Part shown: piece by piece, positions 1-39,727 of the stretch
How positions within the stretch are numbered: position 1 is the first letter of the stretch
How the letters are laid out: the number at the start of each line of letters is the position of its first letter
Origin: a virus
Virus record (IMG/VR): IMGVR_UViG_3300045988_129909
Coordinates: 1-39,727 of that record
Length of the DNA: 39,727 nucleotides
Strand: one strand, 5' to 3'
Notes under the pieces: model-generated
Seen by the model: only the letters and a program-made list of their open reading frames with translations
Told to the model about the DNA's origin: nothing
The model's database searches: none
Position numbers and translations under genes: made by a program

Positions 1-77
1 AAGACATTCAAGCATTTTGTTAAACTGCTCACGCTGATTACCTTTAACGCCACCGCTGATATGTTCCTCAAAAATCA
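1..77. repeat. 77-bp terminal overlap, identical to 39651..39727 (circular contig closure)
   Basis: Direct comparison: aagacattcaagcattttgttaaactgctc...atgttcctcaaaaatca occurs at both window ends. The unique length is 39650 bp. Confidence 0.95.
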
Positions 78-8049: not shown

Positions 8050-8273
8050 CGGTATTTTCTCTGTCGCAAATGAGATTTACGGCATTGTTCAGAAAATTGT
8101 ACTTGCGTAGATGTCAAATCACGCCTAACTTTTTCGGCAGCTTGTATTTCATCAAGCCGTTGTTCGTGAACAAAGCGCCATTGTTTATATTTTTCGCATT
8201 TGCCGTGACAGCCCATTGCCCTATCGGCGCAATCTTTACACGGCGGATTGTCATATATAAGAATTTTAAACAC
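8046..8273 (-). CDS. Hypothetical Cys-rich protein
   Basis: 75-aa frame with a GTG start. It contains CKDCADRAMGCHGKCEKY. Confidence 0.5.
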   Translation of the reverse strand: MFKILIYDNPPCKDCADRAMGCHGKCEKYKQWRFVHEQRLDEIQAAEKVRRDLTSTQVQFSEQCRKSHLRQRKYR

Positions 8274-8386
8274 CTCGCAAACGGCTTTTAATTTGCCCTG
8301 TAAGCGATTTTTAGCCTAACGCAAGTATTTTATTGCCTAAAGAATAAAAACCGCCACAGAGCCTAAAAGAATGAATATTTTTTATA

Positions 8387-8800
8387 TTAGAACGGTAAAT
8401 CGTCCGAACTGTCAATTGAATTGTCAAACCCCAAATCGTTAAGTTTGTCAGCTAAATTATTAATCGGGTCAGCCTGAACATCAAGATTAGCTGATTTTTT
8501 GCTTTCGGCAAAATAGAAGTTATTGACATTAACCTCATATGCCGTGCGGTTGTTGCCGTCTTTGTCTTGATACTTTCGGGTATACAATGAGCCGTCTACG
8601 GCAATAAGCTGACCTTTTTTAACATACTTGCTCATTACCTCTGCGCCTTTATCCCAAATCGTACAAGGTATAAAATCGGTTGTATCTTTGCTATACTTAC
8701 GGTCAACCGCAAGCGTGAAAGAGCATACAGACTTTCCGCTTGTTGTGGTTTTAAGCTCTAAATCACTGGTTGTACGCCCTAACAACTGAATGTTATTCAT
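8387..8800 (-). CDS. ssb: Single-stranded DNA-binding protein
   Basis: The OB-fold N-terminus MNNIQLLGRTTSDLELKTTTSGKSVCSFTLAV and the acidic C-terminal tip DSSDDLPF are both typical of SSB. Confidence 0.85.
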   Translation of the reverse strand: MNNIQLLGRTTSDLELKTTTSGKSVCSFTLAVDRKYSKDTTDFIPCTIWDKGAEVMSKYVKKGQLIAVDGSLYTRKYQDKDGNNRTAYEVNVNNFYFAESKKSANLDVQADPINNLADKLNDLGFDNSIDSSDDLPF

Positions 8801-8813
8801 AATTTATCTCTCC

Positions 8814-9314
8814 TTATACACTTTCATGTAATATATATTGATTTAATACTGCCTTGCAAATAGACCATATCATAAGTCCCATTTCTTCCTTGGGCAAAAA
8901 GCAAATGTGCAACCCATACTTAATTTCAAAAGTATGCAAAGCACCGTAAAAAGATTTGGGGTTATAATTGTTCTGATATTTTTGAGTTATAATATCGTGC
9001 CAACCACCGATTTGCTCGATTAAAAGGAATTTATGCGCTTTGTTTTGGGCTCGTTTTAACTCATAATGAAAAGTTTCATTTTGAATATTTGTAGCAATCT
9101 CGCTAAGATTTGATTTCCTTTCTATCGCGAGTTCATCGGTAAAATAATAGTCAGTTGGAAAACCGAGTTCTTCATTCTTTGGTATCATAAAACAATAATC
9201 GCCCTCTCTTAATTTACGGTGCTGATAATTTATTTTATGTTTTTCAAAATACGATATTATATGCTCGTTCTTTTTTTCAACAGTATCACACACTATTGTC
9301 ATACTTTTTAACAA
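8814..9314 (-). CDS. ERCC4 (XPF/Mus81/Hef-type) nuclease domain protein
   Basis: IVCDTVEKK...REGDYCF...LAIERKSNLSEI matches the GDY...ERKxxxD/E signature. The start (TTG at 9314 or ATG at 9302) is uncertain. Confidence 0.6.
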   Translation of the reverse strand: MLKSMTIVCDTVEKKNEHIISYFEKHKINYQHRKLREGDYCFMIPKNEELGFPTDYYFTDELAIERKSNLSEIATNIQNETFHYELKRAQNKAHKFLLIEQIGGWHDIITQKYQNNYNPKSFYGALHTFEIKYGLHICFLPKEEMGLMIWSICKAVLNQYILHESV

Positions 9315-9367
9315 GGTTTCCCATTGTTTTTTTGTATAATAAGGCTTTATAATTTATAACCCCTTTC

Positions 9368-9399: not shown

Positions 9400-9726
9400 T
9401 TATATAAAGTCGCTATCGTCACTGTCAAGGTCACTGGTTAATCCCTCAAAGTCAGCTGTCGGGCTTGCCCCTGTATTCCTCAATAAAGCCGATACAGATA
9501 AATTATCATAGTATTTATCTCCAACTTTATTAGTCTTAGCAAAGACTGACTTTATCTCAAGTATTTCTACCATATCCCCGACTTTACACTTAAAATCGTG
9601 ATTTTCAGCCCATATGGTAATCTTTTTATTTCCCTCAGCTTTGAAAAAACACCAGTCGCCTTTTTGACCTGTACCCGACCGCGTATCAGCCACGGTCAAC
9701 ACTGCGCCCTTTTCTATTTTTGCCAT
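9400..9726 (-). CDS. Hypothetical protein, possible OB-fold ssDNA-binding accessory with an SSB-like acidic tail
   Basis: 108 aa. The C-terminus LTSDLDSDDSDFI mimics the SSB C-terminal tip, and the gene lies immediately downstream of RecT. Confidence 0.35.
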   Translation of the reverse strand: MAKIEKGAVLTVADTRSGTGQKGDWCFFKAEGNKKITIWAENHDFKCKVGDMVEILEIKSVFAKTNKVGDKYYDNLSVSALLRNTGASPTADFEGLTSDLDSDDSDFI

Positions 9727-9729
9727 ATA

Positions 9730-10407
9730 TTATTGCTCCTTATTTAATTCGATTGTAACTGTTTGCGGGGTATCGGCTTGATTTGAATAATCAGTATAGC
9801 CGTAAACATCTTGTATTTCATCTTGTGTTTGATAGCCGTACAAAACTTCGGGGCAATATGCTCTTGCAAAAAAACTGGCGGTTCTATACCTCATCATCTG
9901 CTGGGGATAAACTTGCCATTTTGAGCCTTTTTTATCATACCACCCCTCTTTTTTAGCAAGGTCTATTGATATGACTTCGGAAGTTAAAACTTCGTTATCG
10001 GATAGCCTTGTAGCTTGTGCATAACAAGCTGTTTTTTCTTTGTTAAACACAAACTTTAAAGGTGTGAATTTATGACAATTATTTATCGCCATAATAGCAT
10101 ACTGACCCGACCAACCAATTTGACCGTTTACCGAATACATATTGTTGAGTATCATTGCCAAAGGCTGATTTGAGCGAATGGCAATATCCATAGCTACAAG
10201 TATATCTCCTGCTCTGCCCTTAAATCGTTCGGGTATGCTATTACCCTGTGCTAAATTGTTTGCAAGTTTAAATTGGAATTTCATTTGTGACGTATCATTC
10301 CAAGCCAAACCACAACTATCGGTTGTTGGCATACCAAGATTTGAATTATCAGAGGTATTTTCTTCGGTAATTTCCGAATTTTCGGTTATTGTTTCATTTT
10401 CAGCCAT
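9730..10407 (-). CDS. recT: RecT-family single-strand annealing protein
   Basis: 225 aa. Called from the pattern IPERFKG...DILVAMDIAIRSNQPLAMILNNMYSVNGQIGWSG...W...PQQMMRYRTASFFARAYCPEVLYG and the context of exonuclease and SSB. Confidence 0.6.
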   Translation of the reverse strand: MAENETITENSEITEENTSDNSNLGMPTTDSCGLAWNDTSQMKFQFKLANNLAQGNSIPERFKGRAGDILVAMDIAIRSNQPLAMILNNMYSVNGQIGWSGQYAIMAINNCHKFTPLKFVFNKEKTACYAQATRLSDNEVLTSEVISIDLAKKEGWYDKKGSKWQVYPQQMMRYRTASFFARAYCPEVLYGYQTQDEIQDVYGYTDYSNQADTPQTVTIELNKEQ

Positions 10408-13109: not shown

Positions 13110-13139
13110 TTTTTGACCCCCTTTCTTGATTGCAAACTA

Positions 13140-13168
13140 ATTATATCACACTAAAAATAGTTTGTCAA
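13140..13168 (-). promoter_or_regulatory. Consensus sigma70 promoter of the early (leftward) operon
   Basis: The minus strand reads TTGACA (13163-13168), a 17-nt spacer, then TATAAT (13140-13145). The upstream 27-nt module is identical to 4634-4660. Confidence 0.7.
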
Positions 13169-13244
13169 GAATATTTTTAAATATTTTCAAATATTTTTTA
13201 GAAAAAGTTTTTTGAGAAAATTCGCACTTTTTTTATTTTTACTA

Positions 13245-13273
13245 TTGACTTTATCGATTATATAGGGTAAAAT
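13245..13273 (+). promoter_or_regulatory. Divergent rightward promoter
   Basis: The plus strand reads TTGACT (13245-13250), a 17-nt spacer, then TAAAAT (13268-13273). Confidence 0.45.
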
Positions 13274-13344
13274 AAGCATATCCAAAAGGGAAACGGTGTA
13301 TGCAGGGCATTGTTCCTGATATATTGTTTCTCTTAAAGAAGTAA

Positions 13345-13392
13345 GATTATATGTTTGTACCTGCATTACAATCATATGGTCTTTTTCTTTTT
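13345..13392 (+). terminator. Plus-strand intrinsic terminator closing a ~110-nt transcript
   Basis: GATTATATG (13345-13353) pairs with CATATGGTC (13373-13381) using two G-U pairs that work only on the plus strand. An inner TGTA/TACA stem is present, and TTTTTCTTTTT follows. Confidence 0.5.
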
Positions 13393-13771
13393 GCACATTT
13401 TGAGGTCAATGTAAAAACCTCTGCCGTCTCATCAACGGTATGTATCGGGTTAAAGCCGAGTTTATTATCGATTTCCGTTTAGAAAAACCGCCGTGTCCCA
13501 TTTGGGAGTAGGGTATGTTCTTGCGGGTGATACCACACTGTTTACAGCACGACCGAGGCAGATTAAGAACATAAACGAAAGTGACGATTGGCTCTGTAGG
13601 TATAGCCACTTTCCCTATCTATTTTGCATTTTTAATGCTTGTAGGTAGGGAAAACTTTGCTCTGATTTCACCATAGGTATAAACCACTAAACTTTAAGTT
13701 TCTACAACCTTTTTGCTAACCTCAGCAATATGGTTGCCGCAAAAATCGCAATATCAATAATTTGTTTTTAG

Positions 13772-13804
13772 AGACAAAAGAAAAAGCGCCCCGAAAATGG
13801 AGCG
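13772..13804 (-). terminator. Intrinsic terminator at the end of the late/post-lysis operon
   Basis: The minus strand reads CGCTCC-attttc-GGGGCG followed by CTTTTTCTTTT, 25 nt after the stop of 13828..14127. Confidence 0.6.
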
Positions 13805-13827
13805 ACTTTTTCAATGGTATTAGCTAT

Positions 13828-18507: not shown

Positions 18508-19920
18508 TTAATTGCCGTCATATGTTCCTAAAATACCAAGGATTTTGACACCTTTTTTAATATTTTCAGGCTTTATATTGCTATCTATCGAACTATCTAC
18601 AGAAGGTTGATACACTTTTGTTATACCGTTTTTATCAGTAGAAGGTAATATTTCTTTATAAAACCCACCTGTTACTTGTTCAAATACTACTCCTGCATTA
18701 TCTGTTAATAGCGTTGTAATGGGATAGAGGTTTGTTATACCTGTTACTTCGCCTGTTGGTGTTGAAGTATATGTTTGTCCTTGATAGGGTTCATAAGGAG
18801 TGGCAGTTGCTCCTTTTTCTATTTGTAAGTTTTTGATTTTAGCCGTATAATATCCATTTACACCGTCAAGTATAAACAGAATATAATGTTTACCCGCTTG
18901 CTGTGTTAAAGTATATTTTGTAATATTTTTAAACTGAGGGTATTTATAAATATTTATAGCAACATTGTCTAATATACTTTCAACAGCCATTATTTCAGTC
19001 CAATAATCCGAACCTACACTATCAAAAGAAATAGTTATTGTTGTGTCTGGCTCTACTGGAATAACGAAACCACTACCTCCACGCTGCGAATAGTAAGTGT
19101 TAAATGAAATAACACCATCTTCAATAGTGGGCAAGAATGCAGTATTGGCTTTGCTGAGTGCAGCATATGTGGGATTATTTATATCAAATAAATTTTTCCC
19201 ACACCTTGTTACATTAACAGTTGAGAAATCTGAAATAAAGGGAGTGTAAGGAGTAGCTGTTGAACCGAGTTCTAATTGAAGTTTAATATTATCAAATGTT
19301 ACGGTATCACCAATTGCACTTGCGACACATCTAACTACTATACCAACCGAAACTAAATCAGCAGTTAAAGTGGTTGTTAAATGTTCACTGCTTGCTTTTG
19401 CGTTTGCTTGAAATAGTATTTTATTATCACTACCATAGCCAACAAGTCCTATATAATTATCTGTTGGAGTAACGTCATACCAACCACCTACAGTAACGGT
19501 AGTACCTTGTGGTATTATTTGTGATAACTTAACTTTATTAAAATACTCGAATCTTTGACCTGCTAAAGTACCTGTTAATTTGTGTGAACCGTCTGAATTA
19601 GTTGACATTGTAAGACCTATTACAGTTGTGTTAACAATTGCAGTTTCATCAAACAAATTCTTACTACCCAATTTAGCATTTAATGTTTTTGGTATATTAT
19701 CAGGATATTTCAACTGCACAACGCTTTTAGGCTCACTAAGGGCATTAGTAAAATTTTCTAATGTCCTTTCTTCACCTTTAAGATTTTCTATTTGTGCAAC
19801 TTTATCAACAAGGTCTTTATATTTTTCAGTAGCCGTTGCTGTGATACCTTTTGCGGTAATTGTTTCAGCTAATCTTTTTTGTTGATTTTTGGCGTCTTGT
19901 AAATAACCTGCTGTTGACAT
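18508..19920 (-). CDS. Tail fibre / receptor-binding protein with two similar beta-sandwich modules
   Basis: 470 aa. Duplicated module ends are LQLELGSTATPYTPF and LQIEKGATATPYEPY. Its start is coupled to the upstream stop (TAATG). Confidence 0.65.
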   Translation of the reverse strand: MSTAGYLQDAKNQQKRLAETITAKGITATATEKYKDLVDKVAQIENLKGEERTLENFTNALSEPKSVVQLKYPDNIPKTLNAKLGSKNLFDETAIVNTTVIGLTMSTNSDGSHKLTGTLAGQRFEYFNKVKLSQIIPQGTTVTVGGWYDVTPTDNYIGLVGYGSDNKILFQANAKASSEHLTTTLTADLVSVGIVVRCVASAIGDTVTFDNIKLQLELGSTATPYTPFISDFSTVNVTRCGKNLFDINNPTYAALSKANTAFLPTIEDGVISFNTYYSQRGGSGFVIPVEPDTTITISFDSVGSDYWTEIMAVESILDNVAINIYKYPQFKNITKYTLTQQAGKHYILFILDGVNGYYTAKIKNLQIEKGATATPYEPYQGQTYTSTPTGEVTGITNLYPITTLLTDNAGVVFEQVTGGFYKEILPSTDKNGITKVYQPSVDSSIDSNIKPENIKKGVKILGILGTYDGN

Positions 19921-20126
19921 TATGCAATTACCTCCTCATCTGTCGGTTCTTCGTCGCTTTGTGTTGATACATCATTGAACATTGTGGCAAGAATAGAGTT
20001 TATATTTCCTATTTCAGAAGTGATTTTATTATCAACCTCTGTTTTGGTATATGTTTGAGACTTAGTATAATAATTATTTAAGTCTGTTTTAGTGGCATAA
20101 TTAGTAAGGTCAACCATACCCGCCAA
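19920..20126 (-). CDS. C-terminal part of the interrupted tail-fibre frame (annotated ORF from an internal ATG)
   Basis: It is in the same frame as 20232..21101, with no stop across 20127-20231. Confidence 0.5.
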   Translation of the reverse strand: MAGMVDLTNYATKTDLNNYYTKSQTYTKTEVDNKITSEIGNINSILATMFNDVSTQSDEEPTDEEVIA

Positions 20127-20231
20127 AACGTCATATTTATAGATTGCACCAGTGGTATTGACTATAACTACATTTGTTCCTACTGGATAGGTCTTGCCAA
20201 CGCCCTCGACAAAATTTGAATTTGTAGTAAA

Positions 20232-21101
20232 CTAACTCTCAATATTGTAGACAAAGCCCTCGGTTTCTTTACTCGGTGTAGGCAATTCAGCTATTGTCGG
20301 TATAGAACCTTTAGCCTTATAAACTGATGATACTTGTGTAGCTATTGCGTTTTCAACAAAGCCCTTATTTACAGCATAATCTGTTTGTGATGAAGATGTC
20401 GGGTTTTTGATATTGGCGATAAATATGCCGTCATTTTGAATTATTATTTTCCCAACAGTATTACCATTAACATCTTTAAGGTCAAGTTCTCTATCGCTTG
20501 CACCGTCAATAACGTCAGCAAAATAATCTTGCTTTTCAAGTAAGGAATTTTTAACATCTTTACTGTTCGCTTTTTCTGACAACGCTTTTGTAACGATTTT
20601 ATTCTGTACTGCGTTTTCAGAAGTTATGGACAATTCATCGTCAATAGTTATTTCGGGTACATTGGCAGATATAACATTATTCCCGTCAATAGTGATATTG
20701 TCACCAGCGGTCAATTTATCTTGCTTTGTAGTTTTTAACTGCTCTATTTCATCGGGTGTATATTCGGAAGGCGCTGTACCGAATGTATCAGTGCCATAGC
20801 GTACCTTAATTTCATTACTCCACAGAGTAGGCAAAACCTTATCCTCAGCCACACCGAATACGCCTATGCGAAACACACCGCTTTCAGCCATTACCTCAAA
20901 CGGTATAGTCAACGTATTCGACAACTTATTAATAAGAATATTTATGGGCTTGCCACCGCAACGTTTAAAAACAATCGTATTTGAATAGTCAGCCCAAAAC
21001 TCGTCAAGGTTAATCTGGCAAGTCTTTCCGACAGTGCCACGGACAAATTCTTCCGAGGTGATTATTTCAACTTCTTTTTCGTGTACTTGCAACTTTAGCA
21101 T
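20232..21101 (-). CDS. Tail fibre protein, terminated by an in-frame TAG
   Basis: 289 aa of structural-like sequence. The stop TAG is at 20232-20234. Confidence 0.7.
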   Translation of the reverse strand: MLKLQVHEKEVEIITSEEFVRGTVGKTCQINLDEFWADYSNTIVFKRCGGKPINILINKLSNTLTIPFEVMAESGVFRIGVFGVAEDKVLPTLWSNEIKVRYGTDTFGTAPSEYTPDEIEQLKTTKQDKLTAGDNITIDGNNVISANVPEITIDDELSITSENAVQNKIVTKALSEKANSKDVKNSLLEKQDYFADVIDGASDRELDLKDVNGNTVGKIIIQNDGIFIANIKNPTSSSQTDYAVNKGFVENAIATQVSSVYKAKGSIPTIAELPTPSKETEGFVYNIES

Positions 21102-21117
21102 TTATTCCACCAACCTT

Positions 21118-21738
21118 TTAAGCGATACGCGTCCATATGTAGAATGTCATAGACGGCTGAATGTTGTTGTGCGGTTGATTGCCGCCGACTTTTGAGGTGT
21201 TTATATCTTTAAGATACGCATATCCCCCGGCTTCGCTGCCCCAGGCATTTGAGTTCACGCCCCCGTAACTTCGCGCATATGCGGCACCCTGCTCGTGCGT
21301 TTTGTCCTCTTCGGCTTTATGATAATGTTCGGGCATTTCCTCTATTGTTGTTTGGTGCTTCTTTTCACCGAGCGTTAAGCCTGCTGTCGCAAAATCCTCA
21401 TCGTTTTCATCTACACCCACAATAGCCTTGCCCTTTGCCGTGCGCTCCCACGTGCCACCAAATAAATCAGCAGGCGAAGTAGAGCCAAGAGTTATGTAAA
21501 CACTGCCGACAGGGTGTGCCAAAAGCAATAAATCCGTTATAGATATAGAGCCTAACGTTATACCGCTTTCTATTGTTTGGATTGACTGTGCATTTGCCTT
21601 AATGGCTATCTCGTTCGCATTTGATTGACCCTTGCAATCGTCAATGCCTTTTTCCATACGGTTAAGCTGTGCGGCTGTTATCGGTGTAGCCGTACTCGGA
21701 CTATCTTGCCAGTTTGTTTTGGTGTAACTAATTGCCAT
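21118..21738 (-). CDS. Tail fibre protein with a C-terminal phage tail-collar-like domain
   Basis: The N-terminus is MAISYTKTNWQDSPSTATPITAAQLNRME. The C-terminus GGNQPHNNIQPSMTFYIWTRIA matches the collar-domain ending. Confidence 0.6.
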   Translation of the reverse strand: MAISYTKTNWQDSPSTATPITAAQLNRMEKGIDDCKGQSNANEIAIKANAQSIQTIESGITLGSISITDLLLLAHPVGSVYITLGSTSPADLFGGTWERTAKGKAIVGVDENDEDFATAGLTLGEKKHQTTIEEMPEHYHKAEEDKTHEQGAAYARSYGGVNSNAWGSEAGGYAYLKDINTSKVGGNQPHNNIQPSMTFYIWTRIA

Positions 21739-21751
21739 TATATTTCTCTCC

Positions 21752-23029
21752 TTAATTAGATGTTATTTCACTACTGACCGTTCCTCTTAAAGCGTTTATG
21801 CCCGAAACCGAACAGTTTAAAATCGGAATAATTATTGTTCTGCCGTCTGTGGTTGTTACCTGAATATTATCCCCCGGTTCAAGAAATGGCGCATACGTAT
21901 AGGTTAAATTACCTACAACGTATTTAGATTTTAATAAATATGCGCATATATTTCTTATGATATATCTATTATATTCTTGATATGTGGAAGACCACCTTAA
22001 GTCTGAAAATGCATTGTTGCACATTGTTAAGTCAAAATCATAGGCAGGCGTTACATCTGTTTGCCCAATAGGATTAGACCATATAGTTTCTGTTTTAGAA
22101 AATCCCGTGCCGTCTGATTGCTCATACCACGTATTCAATCTATAACAAGCATATGCCGTATTTTCTAAATCGTCATAATCTATGTCTATGAAATAAGGTA
22201 ATTTATAAACAGGATTAACAGGTTGAGTTTTAAGCAATGGGAACAAAGTGCTTGACGGGAATAATGTTGTAGACGGATAGACCATATCTATAACATTATC
22301 TATTCTTATAAATTCTATTTTGTCAACAAAGCCTAATTGTGGCGTGTCTATAAAATTTTGTTCGTCTGTAAATTTAGATTTTGAAATTTTTATGTGCGCG
22401 CCCAAAACGTTTCCCAAAAAATTAAGAAAATCAGATATTAAAATCTGTGTAACATTATCACGCTTTTTAAATTTTGCAGTTCCCAATATAGAAAACTTAG
22501 CCTTTGTTTTTTCAATATCGCAATAGAATACGCCCGAAGTTACTACCATTTGTAAAAAATCGGACAATGCCACTTCTTCTCCTGTGGTATATTGATTATA
22601 GATATACGCATAATTGGCATTAAGCCTTTGCGATAATATGCTTGATATTGTAGCTGATATTGTGCGCCTATTGTCGGTAAATTTTTCTTTTTCAATAAAG
22701 CCGTTCATATATACGATATATTCCGTGCCTATTTTTTGATAAACAACGCAATATTTACCTAAATAGCGTTCGCCCTCATAAGCCCATTGTATTGTCATTT
22801 GAGGTAATACAAAAGTACCAAATTCAAAAGTATTGCTATCGATAACGCCCTCGTTGAATTGCATACTTTCACTTATTATCTGTTCGCCTGTTATCCGCTT
22901 TACAATTTTATAATAAGTTTCGCCCTCAATATCGGGGTTGTCTACTAAATCATAAATTGCAACCGTTATAGGCTTTTCCACGCTATCTTGAAAGCATAAT
23001 GCTTTATTTTCGGCAGATAAATCTACCAT
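21752..23029 (-). CDS. Tail tip / Tal-like baseplate hub protein
   Basis: 425 aa. Called on its position two genes after the tape measure. Confidence 0.5.
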   Translation of the reverse strand: MVDLSAENKALCFQDSVEKPITVAIYDLVDNPDIEGETYYKIVKRITGEQIISESMQFNEGVIDSNTFEFGTFVLPQMTIQWAYEGERYLGKYCVVYQKIGTEYIVYMNGFIEKEKFTDNRRTISATISSILSQRLNANYAYIYNQYTTGEEVALSDFLQMVVTSGVFYCDIEKTKAKFSILGTAKFKKRDNVTQILISDFLNFLGNVLGAHIKISKSKFTDEQNFIDTPQLGFVDKIEFIRIDNVIDMVYPSTTLFPSSTLFPLLKTQPVNPVYKLPYFIDIDYDDLENTAYACYRLNTWYEQSDGTGFSKTETIWSNPIGQTDVTPAYDFDLTMCNNAFSDLRWSSTYQEYNRYIIRNICAYLLKSKYVVGNLTYTYAPFLEPGDNIQVTTTDGRTIIIPILNCSVSGINALRGTVSSEITSN

Positions 23030-25740: not shown

Positions 25741-26465
25741 TTATCTTTTGCCTAAATTCTTAAAGAATATATAAGCTTTCAACCTCTCGGCTTTCAACTG
25801 TTCCTCGGTCATACATTCCTCGGATTGTGCCTTAAAATCGTCTGTAAACGGTTTTTCGGGATAGTCAGGTATTTTATTGGCTGTGTTCTTATCTGCCAGT
25901 GTAGCCACCAAAATGGACGAATTAAGGGCATTCTTAAACCACGCTCCTAATTCCCACCGCTCTTGTGCCTTTATTTTCTGCCTTTGTTCATAAGCCTCAA
26001 AGTCAATTTGAATTGTTTTAGGTGTAAGCCCCCAAAAGTCGGAACGCAAACCGCCTATTACTAAATATGGGAGTAACCATTCGTGATAAACCCACTCTTT
26101 GATACTCCCATACTCCTCAATAGTTTTTTGCTTTTTTGCGGTTGAGTTTATTCCTCGCTCGTTGCAGTTTCCTTGTTTTCCACCGACTGTTGGGTTGCGA
26201 GAAAAAAATCACTTTCGACAAGTGCATTGATAAGTGGCACACAATCGTCAAATGAACCACCGTTTTTAAGATGTGCCATAATCTCCGCTCCCGCTTGTTC
26301 AACAGTAATATCTCCAAACCAAGCCAAAAGCGCTCTAACGGCTGACATATTCGACTTTTTGAGAGCGGTAACACTCAATCCTAAATCTTCAAGCTCACAT
26401 ATTGCGTTGAAGTCAATCACCTTGTCGAGATTGTAGTCCTTGCTATTTATTGTTATTTTTTTCAT
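25741..26465 (-). CDS. Tail assembly chaperone GT (product of a -1 frameshift at 26202-26208)
   Basis: The -1 frame is open from about 26217 to 25741. Slipping on T_TTT_TTT joins ...LVESDFF to SRNPTVGG...EWVYHEWLLPYLVIGGLRSDFWGL.... Confidence 0.6.
26148..26465 (-). CDS. Tail assembly chaperone G
   Basis: 105 aa, between the major tail protein and the tape measure. Confidence 0.7.
   Translation of the reverse strand: MKKITINSKDYNLDKVIDFNAICELEDLGLSVTALKKSNMSAVRALLAWFGDITVEQAGAEIMAHLKNGGSFDDCVPLINALVESDFFLATQQSVENKETATSEE
26202..26208 (-). promoter_or_regulatory. Slippery heptamer U_UUU_UUU for programmed -1 frameshifting
   Basis: AAAAAAA on the plus strand. In the G frame the codons are GAT TTT TTT CTC, 18 codons before the G stop. 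Confidence 0.6.
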
Positions 26466-29695: not shown

Positions 29696-30271
29696 TTATA
29701 AAATGTTTTTATATTTCCAAATGTAGCCGTGAGCAGTTTTTCTCTGACCTATGCAACATTTTGAAATACAACTTTTGTCTTGAACACCCAAAGTATCAAC
29801 GGCGTGTTTAGCTGATTTATATTCTGCTATAAAATTACCGTCTAAATCAAATTGCAAAACGGGTATACATTTTTTCTCCCGCATTTGTTCTATGGATTGT
29901 TCATTATGGTGTCTGCCATAAAATGGATGATTTACACCCTTAAATCTTTTTGAAAGTTTTTGCTTTGTGACATCTGATAGGTGTGTATTTTTCCCGCCAC
30001 TCCTTATGTTATAACCGAATTTTTTGTCATTAGAATTAAACTTTTTTATATAATATTCTTCATAAAAGTTGGCTTCTTCTAATGATAGGTTTTCTTTTAA
30101 AACAATGTGCTCGAAATTATCCCAACCATACTTTTGTATTGCTTTCCACATTACACAGCAGGTTTCATAACCTTTCCCACCTTGTTTCCAACGATAAGAC
30201 AATTTTTGTCCAGTCTGTCCAACATAAACTTTACCATTGATTTTGTTGCGGTGCAAATAGACAGTATACAT
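29696..30271 (-). CDS. Free-standing GIY-YIG homing endonuclease
   Basis: MYTVYLHRNKINGKVYVGQT...YRWKQ...YGWDNF...EANFYEEYYI...YNIRSGG is the GIY-YIG core. NUMOD-like repeats (SDVTKQKLSKRFKG, HNEQSIEQMREK) follow. No SD sequence is present. Confidence 0.8.
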   Translation of the reverse strand: MYTVYLHRNKINGKVYVGQTGQKLSYRWKQGGKGYETCCVMWKAIQKYGWDNFEHIVLKENLSLEEANFYEEYYIKKFNSNDKKFGYNIRSGGKNTHLSDVTKQKLSKRFKGVNHPFYGRHHNEQSIEQMREKKCIPVLQFDLDGNFIAEYKSAKHAVDTLGVQDKSCISKCCIGQRKTAHGYIWKYKNIL

Positions 30272-30277
30272 ATGGCG

Positions 30278-30796
30278 TTATCTGTCGTATTTTTCGTGTA
30301 GGGCTTCTACCAATGAAGCAGGTTCTACATCAAGTTTGCCATTGCCTGCGGCGGGCGGATTGACATTATTTTTAATATCCTGCGCCGCTGATTTCTTAGA
30401 GGCACTTTCCACTCTGTCGGACATAACCTTTGCAAAAGCGGACGGTGACTGTTCATTTTCCATAAGGTATTTAATTTCCTCACTGGAAAAGCCGTTGTCA
30501 ACAAGCTGTTCTTTAGCTTTGAGAGCGGCAAGTTCTTTTTCCATTGCTTGCACTCTTGCTATTTCAGCCGCAGAGGTTTCAGCCTGTTTTTCTTCCTCTG
30601 TCTGCTTTGAAGCCTTATAATCGCTATATTCTTTTTTGATAGATTTAAGCGAATTTTCGGCTTCTGTCAGTCTGCCTTTAGCGACATAATCGCCTTTTGA
30701 TAGGTCGGCTAACTTCATTTTGGATATGATTTCGCCGATTTCTTCGGCAGTCATACCCTCTTTGTAGGCTTCGCCTAACAGTTCTTGTAGTGTCAT
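30278..30796 (-). CDS. Scaffolding protein (GP20-like)
   Basis: The ATG at 30794-30796 follows AAAGAGGA. MTLQELLGEAYKEGMTAEEIGEIISKMKLADLSKGDYV is followed by a coiled coil. Confidence 0.65.
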   Translation of the reverse strand: MTLQELLGEAYKEGMTAEEIGEIISKMKLADLSKGDYVAKGRLTEAENSLKSIKKEYSDYKASKQTEEEKQAETSAAEIARVQAMEKELAALKAKEQLVDNGFSSEEIKYLMENEQSPSAFAKVMSDRVESASKKSAAQDIKNNVNPPAAGNGKLDVEPASLVEALHEKYDR

Positions 30797-30903
30797 AGTT
30801 CCTCTTTCCTGTATCAGCCTTAATTTGTAAATCCGCAGTCGGCTCTGCGCTTGATACATTCCTACCATAAACGCTGATAGGGGAGCGAATTTATAAAAAT
30901 GCC

Positions 30904-32554: not shown

Positions 32555-32854
32555 TTAGGGCTTATTTGTCATTTTCTGCACCGAATAACTTATTTTTCTC
32601 TTGCAGTTCGGGCAAATAATGTTTTGATTGCTGTTTTGTATGTTAAAATCTACATCAAATCCATATTTTACATAAACTTTTATAGATTTTGTATGGCACA
32701 TAGGACATTCTTTTACTACCAAAACACTGCCCCCTTTTAATTCTATTATATGCAACATTGAAAATTTGTCAAGTATTTTTTTAATTTGCTCGTCTGCGAT
32801 TAAGAATTGTGATAGAATTTTGCCGCTTTTTGAAAGATAAATATTTTTGAGCAT
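32555..32854 (-). CDS. Small zinc-ribbon protein (true start probably the TTG at 32720-32722, giving 55 aa)
   Basis: CPMCH...CPNCK. The long version overlaps terL by 74 nt. A consensus promoter and a GGGGG RBS sit inside it. Confidence 0.45.
   Translation of the reverse strand: MLKNIYLSKSGKILSQFLIADEQIKKILDKFSMLHIIELKGGSVLVVKECPMCHTKSIKVYVKYGFDVDFNIQNSNQNIICPNCKRKISYSVQKMTNKP
32745..32772 (-). promoter_or_regulatory. Consensus promoter between terL and portal
   Basis: The minus strand reads TTGACA (32767-32772), a 16-nt spacer, then TATAAT (32745-32750). Confidence 0.5.
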
Positions 32855-35111
32855 ACATTGCTATCACATCTACGCTATCGTCAAACGGGTTCTTTTGGAC
32901 ATAGGAAAAAGATGTTAGATATTTTAGAAATTTTCCCATTTCAGAACCTTGCGCATACATTCCAAATTCCGGAAATACAATGCACGATTTAATAGTCGCC
33001 TCATTATCATATATTTTATCTTCTTTATGCTTAAAGCTATATACTTCTGTAATATTACAATAATCTATACCTCTTTCGTAAAGCATACCACGCAATAGTG
33101 TGGCGAGGCTTGTATCAGTGTTGCGCTCTATGTGCAATCGCGTAATGTGGTGCTGCTCTATTTTACGAATTATAGTAGGATATATCTTTTCCATAGGTTT
33201 CATTTCAAATATACAGTCTTTAAGATAATGTTTGTCACCTATAGGCAAACAAATAGCCATTGCTATATAGTTTGCACCGGTACGCGCAGGGTCAAGCATA
33301 GCCCAACAGCTTTCCTCGTCTTTTTCTTCCTCAATATGTGGTATAGCCTTATATGTTAATAGATTATCATAGCTAAAAGCACAGCCCTCAATAGGCATAG
33401 GCTCTTGCATATCCATAGCCATAAAAGTATTATAGTCGGCAAGTCTGTCAGCTCGAGCTTCCTCTGTGGTGTATTTATGCGGATATGTGCTTTCGTCAGT
33501 GTCCCAATCAAGCTTAGGAACAGACACGAAAACCGCCTTATGCTGAGCATTAAACTTTGTGTATTTATTGATTTTACTCTGTTTAGCCGTATCACCACCA
33601 TATTTGCGCTTTATCGTAGACAAAAAGTCATAAATATGGTAGGTAGTGCCACTGAAAACCTCAAAACTGTTATTATCATCATATGTTCGTCTTTTCCATT
33701 GGTTTTGATACAGCTCTATATCTTTTTCGTGCATATTGATATTGCCCTTATCTTTCGACCGTGTAATATCATCGTAAAAGCGGTATTTGTATCGTCCGCC
33801 GTCTACTGAGGTGTCTTTATTCGCTAATAGGAACGATGTGCCTTTAATACTTCCGTGAATAAGCAAGCGTGCCACTTGATTATTGCCACCCTCACGCCGA
33901 ACATCAAATATTTTGTCCTTATCACCCTCAAATTGAGCATAATAAGGGAAAACCTTGGCATAATTAGGCTTGCACATATATTTTACCAATTTTGCGGACA
34001 TATCGGTTATCAATGAGGGGTTTCCGACTATTTTTAATACATCTGCGTTTATATCTATGCCAAATATATAGGATATTAGAACGGTATCGGCATAGCTATT
34101 ATGTGATACGATGCCATTTGCAATAAAATTGTGCGTTTCTTCGACTTCAATATCAACCATATCAGTTAAATCTTCGTCAAATTCTATGCTTTTTATTTTT
34201 TGCCATACAAAGTTATTTGAAAGAACCTCTTTAAGCAATCCCGTTTTTTCTAAAAATTCGTTAACTTCATCACCATAATTAAATGGCGGACAAATTTCAA
34301 AAAGGCAATCACTTAAAGCTATATCTTTACACATTTTATAACCTTTATCGGTATACAATCTATGTTCGGGGCTACAAACTATCGCTTTGCCATCATTAAG
34401 TTCAATTCTAACCTGTTTTTTCTCTGTATTCCATTTGTTTATTATTTGTCTTACGACAGCCTTATTTTCTTTCATAGAATACACAAAATCGCCAATATTA
34501 ACATCTTTGATAGGTTTATACCCCTGAATGGTTAAAATAGGCGTATCAGCTTTTAGGCACTTCCCATACCCGACCGGACATTGTTTTTCAAGGTATTTCA
34601 CTGTGCCGTCAAGCACCATTTTGTCGGCATAATACCAAAATCCCTTAAAACAATTAAGGTTATATTTCCATACCTTATCATTTTCAGGCATACCCCACTC
34701 CATATAAAGCGCAAAGTGTTCTATGTTGCGGAAAGCCGACAAAGCGTAGAAATTCTCATACAATTTGCCGTATTCGGTATAATTCTCTTGTAATTTCAGT
34801 AGCCGAGCCTTGTTTTCCTCTGTAAATTTCTCTTTTTTGAGTTTATCAGCCAAAACAGCCATTTTTTTCAGTTTATCGCGCAACGTAGGTAAAACAAATT
34901 TGCAGACATACTCAATATGCTTGCGGATTTCATCCTCGCCCTCGTTATCGCGCAACTGTGTCAAATAACCGTGTATCTGCGAGTGCATAGTGCGATATAA
35001 ATTATCGCTGACAGCTAAAACATACTCGTCACTGTCTAAATACTTTGCATTTTTGCGCATTTCGCTGAACGCAACGCAACTTTCACGAACAATCTCACCA
35101 ATATTATCCAT
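32781..35111 (-). CDS. terL: Terminase large subunit, interrupted by an in-frame mini-intein
   Basis: 776 aa with a GGAGGTG RBS. The Walker A motif CPVGYGK|...|SYADT is split by the intein. It lies immediately upstream of the portal. Confidence 0.85.
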   Translation of the reverse strand: MDNIGEIVRESCVAFSEMRKNAKYLDSDEYVLAVSDNLYRTMHSQIHGYLTQLRDNEGEDEIRKHIEYVCKFVLPTLRDKLKKMAVLADKLKKEKFTEENKARLLKLQENYTEYGKLYENFYALSAFRNIEHFALYMEWGMPENDKVWKYNLNCFKGFWYYADKMVLDGTVKYLEKQCPVGYGKCLKADTPILTIQGYKPIKDVNIGDFVYSMKENKAVVRQIINKWNTEKKQVRIELNDGKAIVCSPEHRLYTDKGYKMCKDIALSDCLFEICPPFNYGDEVNEFLEKTGLLKEVLSNNFVWQKIKSIEFDEDLTDMVDIEVEETHNFIANGIVSHNSYADTVLISYIFGIDINADVLKIVGNPSLITDMSAKLVKYMCKPNYAKVFPYYAQFEGDKDKIFDVRREGGNNQVARLLIHGSIKGTSFLLANKDTSVDGGRYKYRFYDDITRSKDKGNINMHEKDIELYQNQWKRRTYDDNNSFEVFSGTTYHIYDFLSTIKRKYGGDTAKQSKINKYTKFNAQHKAVFVSVPKLDWDTDESTYPHKYTTEEARADRLADYNTFMAMDMQEPMPIEGCAFSYDNLLTYKAIPHIEEEKDEESCWAMLDPARTGANYIAMAICLPIGDKHYLKDCIFEMKPMEKIYPTIIRKIEQHHITRLHIERNTDTSLATLLRGMLYERGIDYCNITEVYSFKHKEDKIYDNEATIKSCIVFPEFGMYAQGSEMGKFLKYLTSFSYVQKNPFDDSVDVIAMYAQKYLSFKKRQNSITILNRRRAN
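34098..34559 (-). mobile_element. Mini-intein (154 aa, Hint domain, no endonuclease domain) inserted in the terL P-loop
   Basis: It begins CLKADTPILTIQG (block A) and contains CSPEHRLYT (block B, TxxH-like) and VDIEVEETHNFIANGIVSHN|S (blocks F/G). The flanking exteins rejoin to GYGKS. Confidence 0.8.
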
Positions 35112-36577: not shown

Positions 36578-37015
36578 ATGACTAACTACAATAAACAAGC
36601 GACAGATTTTTTAAAAGACTGTAACGCTACATTAGATATAATATATCTGGGGCGAAATGTAAACGAAAATTGGGAAGAAAAGCAAAAGCGTGACAATTAT
36701 ATTGTTAATATCGTAACGCCTCGCGGCAATATGCTGGTCAGGTTTTGGGATAGTTTAAACAATACTATTGAAAACATTAACCGAAAAGCGGGAGTACCAA
36801 GAAAAGAGCCATCAGCTTACAATATTCTCTCTTGTCTTACTACTTACGACGTGGGCGATATAAAGGATTTTATTTCAGAATATGGATTTGAAATAAAAAA
36901 GCGTGGCGATTTTACCCGTATCCAAAATATCTACAATGCGGTAAAAAAAGAATACGAAGATATTTGTCGGTGCTTTACTGAAGAGCAAATTAAAAAACTA
37001 CAAGAAATTGTTTGA
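36578..37015 (+). CDS. Hypothetical protein
   Basis: 145 aa with an AAGAGG RBS. It contains the conserved-looking motifs RFWDS and PSAYNILSCL. Confidence 0.7.
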   Translation: MTNYNKQATDFLKDCNATLDIIYLGRNVNENWEEKQKRDNYIVNIVTPRGNMLVRFWDSLNNTIENINRKAGVPRKEPSAYNILSCLTTYDVGDIKDFISEYGFEIKKRGDFTRIQNIYNAVKKEYEDICRCFTEEQIKKLQEIV

Positions 37016-37195
37016 GGTGTGGTATGCGCTTATTTAAAGATGAACAAAATCATCTCATCACAGAGCAGGAGTGGCAAAGAATAATTTTATTTTTATAGCA
37101 GAGTGGCGGCGGCTTTGGCTGCCGTTAATGCGGCAGGGCATACGGTCACAAGCCCCGAAAGCCCGAAAGCATAATTTGATATTGAGGTGTAAAAA

Positions 37196-38188
37196 ATGTA
37201 TAACGGTGAACAATTAGCGCAGGCGTTGACCGTCTTTGGTCTGCCCTGCGTTTTTAAAGAAACGAAACAAACTCCACGAAACACAATATATTATTTTGAT
37301 TTTACCGACTGGGGCAAAGTCACAGCGGGCAGGCGCAAAGCAGCGCTTGACCGCCTTTCACTATACGCTAAACATCAATTTAATTATATAGACAGTAATA
37401 TTTCACATTTTGCAATATATCACGCTGAAGATAATTATAGTATTGTCCCGCTTTTTGGGCTTGCCCTTCCTGATGATGATACCTATAAATTTATAGCAGG
37501 CATAAACGAGGACGGTGAACAAGTCAACATTTCATTAGATGAAATGACACACGCACTTATTGCAGGTACTACCGGCAGCGGTAAAAGCGTATTTTTAAAA
37601 AGCCTTTTATATTCTTTATTAACTACCAATAGCCCGAATAAGATAAAATGTGCTATTATAGATAAAAAGCGCAGTTTAAATTATTGGAGCAGGGCGGCGC
37701 ACTGTCTCAAAGTGGTAAATGATGATGTTTCGGCAATAGCTTTATTAAATACTTTTCAAAAAGAAATGTATAACAGATATGAAGAATTACAGCGGCGAGG
37801 GCTTGAAAAAAATATCGGGCTGTTTCCTAAATGGGTATTGATAATTGATGAACTGGCGGACTTAATGTTAACCGACCGCAAGTCAGAAATTGAAAGTAAA
37901 CTTGTTTCACTTTGTCAGCTCGGGCGCGCCGCTGGTATTCATTGCATATTATGCACCCAGTCGCCCCGAGTTTCCGTTGTCAGTGGTTTAATTCAAGCGA
38001 ACACCCCGACAAAGATTATATTTAAAACAGCGAACACGCGGGAAAGTGTATTGTGTTTAGGTCATTCGGGAGCGGAAAAGCTGCTCGGAAATGGTGACTG
38101 CCTTATAAAATTGCCCGACAGAGTAAAAGATATTAGAGTGCAAGCGCCGTTTGCAAGTGATGAAGACTTTAGAAACTGTATAGAATAG
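37196..38188 (+). CDS. FtsK/SpoIIIE-family DNA translocase-like ATPase
   Basis: Walker A IAGTTGSGKSVFLKSL and Walker B VLIIDELADLM, plus GRAAGIHCILCTQSP. 330 aa with a TAG stop. Confidence 0.8.
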   Translation: MYNGEQLAQALTVFGLPCVFKETKQTPRNTIYYFDFTDWGKVTAGRRKAALDRLSLYAKHQFNYIDSNISHFAIYHAEDNYSIVPLFGLALPDDDTYKFIAGINEDGEQVNISLDEMTHALIAGTTGSGKSVFLKSLLYSLLTTNSPNKIKCAIIDKKRSLNYWSRAAHCLKVVNDDVSAIALLNTFQKEMYNRYEELQRRGLEKNIGLFPKWVLIIDELADLMLTDRKSEIESKLVSLCQLGRAAGIHCILCTQSPRVSVVSGLIQANTPTKIIFKTANTRESVLCLGHSGAEKLLGNGDCLIKLPDRVKDIRVQAPFASDEDFRNCIE

Positions 38189-38998: not shown

Positions 38999-39240
38999 TC
39001 GGTCATTGCTCCCGTTGGGTCTTCAATCCAGTAAATACCTATAACCGTATTTCGCCCATAACGATTTTTAACCACTTCATCACGGCGTTTTATTATATAT
39101 CCCTTGTTGCGTAAATGGTATATAATTCCGCTTAGCCTTGTTGCACCGTAAAGTTCTATTGCCTGCATTGATGTTAATTCTCTGCCTGATAATAAATGCT
39201 TTAATATGGCTTTTGTTTGCGTGTTGTCGCGTATCATCAT
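38995..39240 (-). CDS. Winged-helix DNA-binding protein (HTH_39-like)
   Basis: ELTSMQAIELYGATRLSGIIYHLRNKGYIIKRR is the pattern. Confidence 0.55.
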   Translation of the reverse strand: MMIRDNTQTKAILKHLLSGRELTSMQAIELYGATRLSGIIYHLRNKGYIIKRRDEVVKNRYGRNTVIGIYWIEDPTGAMTE

Positions 39241-39727
39241 TCTACCCCCTTTAATATTCTGCTTACCGTAGCTATGCTTATATTTAATATATTGGCTATA
39301 TCTCTGTAACTCTTGTGTTCAGTTTTCAAATTAAACACTTGCTGCCGAATTTCGTCCGATATTGTTTTCGGTCTGCCGAGTGTAACACCCTGTTGTTTTT
39401 TTCTTTGCAATGCGTTAGATGTATTATACCCTATTTGTCTTTTCAAAAATTCATCTTGTATAAAGAATTGAGATATAGTCATCCAAGTATACGGGTTCAT
39501 TTTTTCCCCGCCCTCTAATGTTATACCATTGCTCAAAAACTTTACAGTTGCTTTTTTCTGTTGTGTTATTAAATCAAGCATTTCAAAGCAATCAATATAA
39601 TTTCTGCCAAAGCGTGATGTTTCGGTAAGGCAAACAATGTCTGTCGGTTCAAGACATTCAAGCATTTTGTTAAACTGCTCACGCTGATTACCTTTAACGC
39701 CACCGCTGATATGTTCCTCAAAAATCA
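39237..39727 (-). CDS. Small serine recombinase, C-terminal part (continues from 1..186 through the circular junction)
   Basis: The frame is open to the window end. It contains the catalytic-domain core LTETSRFGRN and the C-terminal HTH SYRDIANILNISIATVSRILKG. Confidence 0.85.
   Translation of the reverse strand, partial: IFEEHISGGVKGNQREQFNKMLECLEPTDIVCLTETSRFGRNYIDCFEMLDLITQQKKATVKFLSNGITLEGGEKMNPYTWMTISQFFIQDEFLKRQIGYNTSNALQRKKQQGVTLGRPKTISDEIRQQVFNLKTEHKSYRDIANILNISIATVSRILKGVE

Follow-up and report, generated by a model that had tools for sequence, protein, structure and literature searches.

Amber (UAG) nonsense mutations in structural genes of phages are known classically from, for example, the am mutants of T4 and lambda. 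Another described case is the A1 protein of Q-beta, where programmed readthrough of a stop codon gives two isoforms. Gut phages using genetic code 15 (crAss-like, Lak, and others) contain many in-frame TAG codons, which align with Gln, and usually hold a suppressor tRNA (bioRxiv 10.1101/2021.08.26.457843; PMC9523058). The stretch of DNA analyzed here, referred to as the window, is the whole 39,727-nt contig of the IMG/VR record IMGVR_UViG_3300045988_129909, and contains a baseplate or tail-fibre gene interrupted at codon 290 by a single in-frame TAG. An original prediction made on this sequence considered a recent nonsense mutation, programmed readthrough, and TAG suppression as its possible causes. 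The interruption is very probably a recent and non-programmed GAG-to-TAG amber lesion, which occurs as a singleton in the phage consensus of one sample.

An amber codon in a conserved glutamate position

All coordinates are given in plus-strand numbering, and the gene lies on the minus strand. The open reading frame (ORF) 21101..20232 starts with an ATG at 21101 and runs for 289 codons until the TAG at 20234-20232. Past this stop, the same frame stays open for 103 further codons, until a TAA at 19922-19920, so that the whole frame holds 393 codon positions interrupted only at codon 290, exactly as originally described. The 35 codons that follow the TAG (20231-20127) are free of stops and also of in-frame ATG, GTG, or TTG codons, which bears out the statement that there is no start at the break; the first in-frame starts beyond it are a TTG at 20126, corresponding to a listed 68-aa ORF, and an ATG at 20117. 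According to the base composition (the genome has 38% GC), the chance of finding 103 stop-free codons behind a true stop is ~4e-4, and stop-to-stop runs of at least 103 codons make up just 2% of all such runs on the minus strand. The proposal of one continuous fibre module is likewise supported by the alignment to phrog_38190 of the PHROG collection (E = 6.5e-13), in which residues 240-338 of the fused product are covered without a break, and by an AlphaFold2 model that puts residue 290 inside a single compact beta domain. The 289-aa ORF and the 103-codon tail are one gene, and the residues on both sides of the break belong to a single module.

Intact orthologues of 393-394 aa (P0001-P0005), obtained from a search of 5.8 billion proteins, share 83-94% identity with the fused query over 100% of its length. 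The residue aligned with the TAG in these fibres, a point raised by the original prediction, is a nearly invariant Glu within the motif GFVYNIES-E-FTTNSNFVEG, and in a wider alignment of 39 sequences Glu is found in 21 of the 28 that are aligned at this column. The relatives encode it as GAG (L001) or GAA (L002-L004). Homologues ending at ...YNIES with a separate downstream gene, which would speak for a natural end at this position, are not the case.

The closest comparison is offered by a 393-aa protein (P0127) that belongs to the same 90% cluster as the 289-aa product of the window and whose sole difference from the fused translation is E290. Its gene, present in three sibling loci from independent runs (L009 from SRR18467447, L010 from ERR14023213, and L011 from SRR31216350), is identical to the gene of the window in 1181 of 1182 nt. 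The only difference is nucleotide 868 of the gene, G in the siblings and T here (GAG to TAG; position 20234 of the plus strand is A here and C in the siblings). The complete lack of synonymous differences in 1,182 nt indicates that the change is extremely young.

A degenerate pattern across the site was also scanned in viral, metagenome, and reference-genome collections, and all fetched loci were added to the tally. Codon 290 is GAG in 12, GAA in 3, and TAG in 1 of the 16 loci. The lone TAG locus (L005) is a Logan contig from SRR5091595, and its 100% identity to the window over 12,396 nt implies that it stems from the same phage, probably from the same sample. The suggestion of a recent nonsense mutation is strongly supported by three copies of the same allele with GAG and by GAG or GAA in all 15 other loci. 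The pattern scan of 185,579 reference genomes returned no copy of the fibre segment, and a blastn search ("distant" setting) of positions 19700-21300 against 50,697 GenBank phage records gave no match.

The 103 orphaned codons are untranslated unless the TAG is read through, and their nucleotide identity to the intact siblings is 100%. Automatic pipelines made two "genes" of the broken frame, of 289 and 65 aa, and both are on the public protein record; these exact fragments are recorded for two contigs only, the window and the Logan contig from SRR5091595. The 65-aa "gene", which forms a singleton cluster (P0136), is an annotation artefact. A 218-aa C-terminal fragment on a 35-kb contig (P0015) was considered as a second split fibre gene and rejected, as it results from an N scaffold gap with duplicated flanks (L006). 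This fragment is therefore no evidence for recurrent splitting of the fibre gene.

Origin of the amber codon

The proposed origin of the lesion would be a G-to-T transversion in the conserved Glu-290 codon, converting GAG to amber TAG, after which translation under the standard code would end at residue 289. The sense codon held by the orthologues is a single mutational step away from the stop, namely a G-to-T change at the first position of GAG. The lesion is confined to the window and the identical Logan contig; the rest of the frame is intact, and so are the other structural genes, which are 98-100% identical to those of the siblings. Persistence of the mutant genome might be due to a prophage or episomal state (relatives are located in long bacterial contigs, and a resolvase-type recombinase gene spans the contig junction), to complementation by co-circulating wild-type phage, or simply to the youth of a deleterious variant that has not been purged yet. 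Two other sources of variation were considered and discarded. Mutagenesis by a diversity-generating retroelement does not fit a G-to-T change, which is not at an adenine, and no reverse transcriptase was met among the proteins scanned; slippage or phase variation would involve a repeat tract, and there is none at the site.

Several points weigh against a recent mutation as the explanation. The evidence consists of an assembled consensus, in which a fixed T, a majority or minority variant, and a consensus error are not separated, and the two assemblies that carry the T may share a read set, hence they do not confirm each other independently. The circle is closed by a 77-nt overlap, and a phage whose baseplate gene is dead should not become so abundant, except with the help of complementation or of a prophage or episomal state. 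Moreover, the loss of function is deduced from a moderately good model of the monomer (mean pLDDT 66). The T could be either a fixed mutation or a majority variant, a consensus error being less likely.

If the T came from an error of sequencing, assembly, or consensus, or if the assembler had chosen a minority variant, the phage actually present in the sample would carry GAG and an intact gene. This would agree with the occurrence of TAG as a singleton against 15 GAG or GAA loci, in an allele otherwise 100% identical to intact copies, and G-to-T is the error type typical of oxidative damage (8-oxoG). Lesions are also present in related metagenome assemblies, such as L006, where the flank of an N gap is duplicated, and L002, where a Tal-like gene was called in two pieces of 152 and 265 aa. 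However, the T is found in two assemblies from different pipelines (the 39,727-nt contig of the window and the 12,396-nt Logan contig), at a site without homopolymer or repeat, and substitution errors in a consensus are rare at a coverage sufficient to close a 39.6-kb circle, so that an artefact is considered unlikely. The probability is lower still for a functional amber allele, in which a host amber-suppressor tRNA or leaky termination would yield the full-length protein or two isoforms of 289 and 393 aa. The undamaged state of the 103 downstream codons speaks for such a product, but it is expected for any very recent mutation, given that no other difference exists in 1,182 nt. Also in its favour are the circular assembly of a genome without other damage and the rarity of TAG, which is the least used stop and ends 5 of the 55 genes (the broken fibre gene and four others). 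On the other hand, the stop is found in none of the relatives (0 of 15 other loci) and the phage is devoid of tRNA genes (0 in the window according to ARAGORN). Folding of the 116 nt from the stop onward gave a minimum free energy of -22 kcal/mol against a mean of -19.75 for shuffled sequences (z = -0.68), i.e., no significant RNA structure, and this downstream sequence is identical in the siblings that lack the stop. In E. coli, termination tends to be efficient when a stop is followed by U, as it is here, although the Clostridia, the probable host group, may differ. Programmed readthrough into two isoforms, as contemplated in the original prediction, finds no backing in these results.

A viable and transmitted amber variant, arising either from a suppressor host (with reduced dose or two isoforms) or from a 289-aa form that is tolerated or even adaptive, for instance by shedding the distal module and changing adsorption, is given slightly less credence still. 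Nothing points to a suppressor host; if such a variant were true, it would represent natural suppressor-dependent or truncation-based modulation of a fibre in a gut phage. The least probable explanation, with next to no weight left, is a reassigned code in which TAG is sense, similar to code 15. Its sole support is the TAG itself, in frame within a late structural gene of a phage from the gut, a habitat of known recoding (bioRxiv 10.1101/2021.08.26.457843; PMC9523058), but this TAG is the only one in frame in the genome, it aligns with Glu rather than Gln, and no suppressor tRNA accompanies it. In addition, four genes end normally at TAG, the siblings encode the same protein with GAG, and code 11 yields contiguous genes of full length. 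A tblastn search with the ORFs of the relatives found no internal stop in the other structural genes. Code reassignment is already refuted by the tests made. Together with the tandem stops considered below, these observations also run counter to the earlier idea of a suppressed or leaky TAG.

The tandem-stop pattern had been put forward as a sign of leakiness. The next in-frame stop after the other four TAGs comes after 3, 3, 4, and 12 intervening codons; the numbers originally given were right, but they are no evidence of a leaky TAG. The median distance to the next stop is 4 codons in TGA-terminated genes and 9 in TAA-terminated ones, with an expected mean spacing of ~14 codons from composition, and the pattern is not significant (one-sided Mann-Whitney p = 0.064, n = 4), besides being equally strong for TGA.

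A candidate for a second in-frame stop is the TGA at positions 13406-13408 (minus strand), where L002 has TCA. It lies in a stretch of ~700 nt without convincing genes (13110..13827, minus strand), where no gene was called in the identical contig L005. In L002, this stretch holds a 136-aa ORF with a GTG start, to which the window shows a protein-level identity of 92.6% (tblastn), and which has an odd composition and no PHROG hit. This TGA was rejected as a second leaky stop because the GTG-started ORF is not a reliable gene, and the stretch might have a regulatory role or not code for protein at all, instead of being another broken gene. Other tblastn matches running across a stop (9445-9780 and 26139-26465) correspond to adjacent genes in the same frame or to C-terminal differences in length.

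Fibre protein, gene neighbourhood, and genome

The possible effect of the truncation was approached with an AlphaFold2 monomer model of the intact orthologue P0001 (94% identical), whose mean predicted local distance difference test score (pLDDT) is the value given above. The model has an N-terminal beta sandwich (residues 1-104, pLDDT ~90) followed by a poorly predicted shaft, a second small beta domain (approximately residues 261-328, pLDDT 73-89), and helices at residues 353-376 in a C-terminal part of low confidence. Within the second domain, strands 262-267 and 283-287 precede residue 290, and strands 309-315 and 321-326 follow it. Since residue 290 falls between strands 283-287 and 309-315, the stop would cut this domain in half. 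The truncation also removes the conserved C-terminal helix region IGNINSILATMF (the IGNINSILATMFN segment). Among 120 homologues, at least 53 have the motif IG[ND]I..[IL]L at their C terminus, including variants whose middle parts are wholly different. As judged from the model, the 289-aa product is probably non-functional or mis-assembled.

The same 90% cluster includes variants of 828 aa (P0122, P0128, and P0129) whose first ~330 and last ~35 residues are the same as in the fibre, and which carry an inserted module of ~435 aa, rich in "NIAIG" repeats, ahead of the C-terminal KKYVDDAIGNINSILATMFN segment. This arrangement shows that distal fibre parts are exchanged as modules between conserved ends.

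Foldseek searches against the PDB returned baseplate proteins as the best matches, namely those of NF5 (9m8o), TP901-1 (4v96), and 80alpha (6v8i), with E values of 3.5e-4 to 4e-3 and probabilities of 0.97-1.0. For the N-terminal domain, the matches were the 4v96 chains (E = 5.5e-4 to 8e-3) and 9m8o_P (E = 3.5e-4), with low TM-scores. TM-scores in these searches were 0.19-0.21 on the query and 0.25-0.56 on the target. In 4v96, the matching chains have 291-299 residues and are presumably BppU. Pfam gave nothing meaningful on the fused protein, and a profile search of PDB sequences found no sequence-level similarity to solved structures. The structural matches fit a predicted role as an upper-baseplate fibre or adaptor without proving it, and the protein might act as the adaptor for the next fibre.

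The gene is part of a baseplate module with the order tape measure protein (741 aa, phrog_1535), DUF6711/Dit-like protein (139 aa), a 425-aa protein, a Gp10_C protein (206 aa), the broken gene, a 470-aa fibre, and the amidase endolysin and holin. This order puts the broken gene behind the tape measure, Dit-like, and Tal-like genes and ahead of the candidate receptor-binding protein and the lysis genes. The TAA of the fibre gene shares bases with the ATG of the 470-aa gene (ATAATG), which is preceded by a GAGGAGG Shine-Dalgarno sequence 10 nt upstream; with a ribosome-binding site of its own, the 470-aa fibre should still be translated. In L002, the orthologue of the 425-aa gene of the window (21752..23029) is located at 8074..9350 and was divided by gene calling into ORFs of 152 and 265 aa that lie in different frames. 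The division looks like a frameshift, caused by mutation or assembly error, and shows that assemblies of this phage group contain lesions that break genes at other places too.

Table 1. Positions of the interrupted fibre gene, its parts, and the adjoining genes in the window.
Feature	Position	Strand	Remarks
Full-length baseplate/tail-fibre gene frame	19920..21101	-	393 codon positions + TAA, broken at codon 290
In-frame amber TAG	20232..20234	-	Altered base gene nt 868 = plus-strand 20234; ancestral GAG (Glu)
Truncated 289-aa product	20235..21101	-	N-terminal anchor 1-104, shaft, first half of the predicted 261-328 beta domain
Orphaned C-terminal 103 codons	19923..20231	-	Second half of the predicted beta domain, YYTK repeats, conserved IGNINSILATMFN helix + acidic tail
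65-aa automatic gene call	19920..20117	-	Tail of the broken fibre gene from an internal Met (L005 gene 3336..3533, 65 aa)
Upstream tail/baseplate protein, 206 aa, Gp10_C domain	21118..21738	-	
Downstream 470-aa fibre/receptor-binding candidate	18508..19920	-	100% aa identical to L009/L010

The genome is complete at ~39.65 kb, is assembled as a circle with a terminal direct overlap (1..77 = 39651..39727), and has nearly all of its genes on the minus strand. It is the genome of a siphophage, probably one of gut Oscillospiraceae. As the fibre segment has no match in reference genomes, the capsid protein was used for host placement. Its relatives (67-73% identity) are located in contigs of metagenome-assembled genomes of gut Oscillospiraceae, mostly Faecousia, and some of these contigs reach up to 195 kb. 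On the basis of these relatives, the lineage probably infects Clostridia of the Oscillospiraceae, and related phages are probably found as prophages. Metagenomes from the pig gut and from other guts are the source of the closest relatives. A 142-aa ORF (39237..39665, minus strand) contains the C-terminal two thirds of a resolvase N-domain (PF00239, profile positions 55-144) and a helix-turn-helix; a small serine recombinase gene of the resolvase type seems to span the contig junction. The scanned proteins included no tyrosine integrase.

Besides the fibre gene, the window holds several other elements. The large subunit of the terminase (776 aa, 32781..35111, minus strand) carries an intein, detected as Intein_splicing (PF14890) at residues 210-338 (E = 1.5e-15), and a T7-type RNaseH-like nuclease domain at residues 606-703. 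A Twister-P5 ribozyme (RF02684) is found at 37097..37158 of the plus strand, with 51.8 bits against a gathering threshold of 37.6 (E = 4.5e-8), in the gap between a 145-aa ORF (36578..37015) and a 330-aa FtsK/SpoIIIE-like gene (37196..38188), on the plus-strand islet of the otherwise minus-strand genome. A 191-aa protein (29696..30271, minus strand) is 100% identical to the product with GIY-YIG and NUMOD domains (homing endonuclease) of L009 and L010. Its gene lies between a 196-aa gene (30278..30868), the next after the portal, and a 319-aa capsid gene, and is missing at this place in L001; this points to a mobile element inserted among the structural genes. The early region includes a protein with a PAPS-reductase domain (365 aa, PF01507, 3179..4276, minus strand) and a C-5 cytosine DNA methylase (307 aa, PF00145, 4956..5879, minus strand).

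Comparison with known systems

The feature is ordinary in kind, and its correct annotation is one disrupted 393-codon gene. Its interest lies in the caution it brings to annotation and to screens for code reassignment, as one in-frame TAG within a late gut-phage gene mimics recoding or readthrough, and it was the near-identical genomes that revealed a one-off GAG-to-TAG lesion. If the allele is real and predominant, it would be a deleterious mutation of a structural gene caught in a natural phage population, biologically unremarkable.

The predicted protein resembles TP901-1 BppU (4v96) in the position of its gene, after the Dit-like and Tal-like genes, and may resemble it in the fold of its N-terminal beta sandwich. 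As in BppU and the baseplate proteins of 80alpha (6v8i) and NF5 (9m8o), its organization is modular, with a conserved N-terminal anchor and exchangeable distal parts. It differs from BppU in the lack of sequence similarity, the low TM-scores, and the distal domains.

The code-15 gut phages likewise have TAG in frame within late structural genes, whereas the locus described here has a single TAG, no tRNA, Glu as the aligned residue, and siblings with GAG. Like the Q-beta A1 gene, it combines a stop with a long in-frame extension, so that a short and a long product are possible. However, the stop of a programmed readthrough is conserved among relatives, and the one described here has neither this conservation nor a stimulatory structure. 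The closest likeness is to the classical amber mutants of T4 and lambda, where one base change also turns a sense codon into UAG in an otherwise intact late gene, the frame beyond is preserved, and a full-length product would, there and here, require a suppressor host. Those mutants were selected in the laboratory, whereas the present allele was found in a metagenome assembly.

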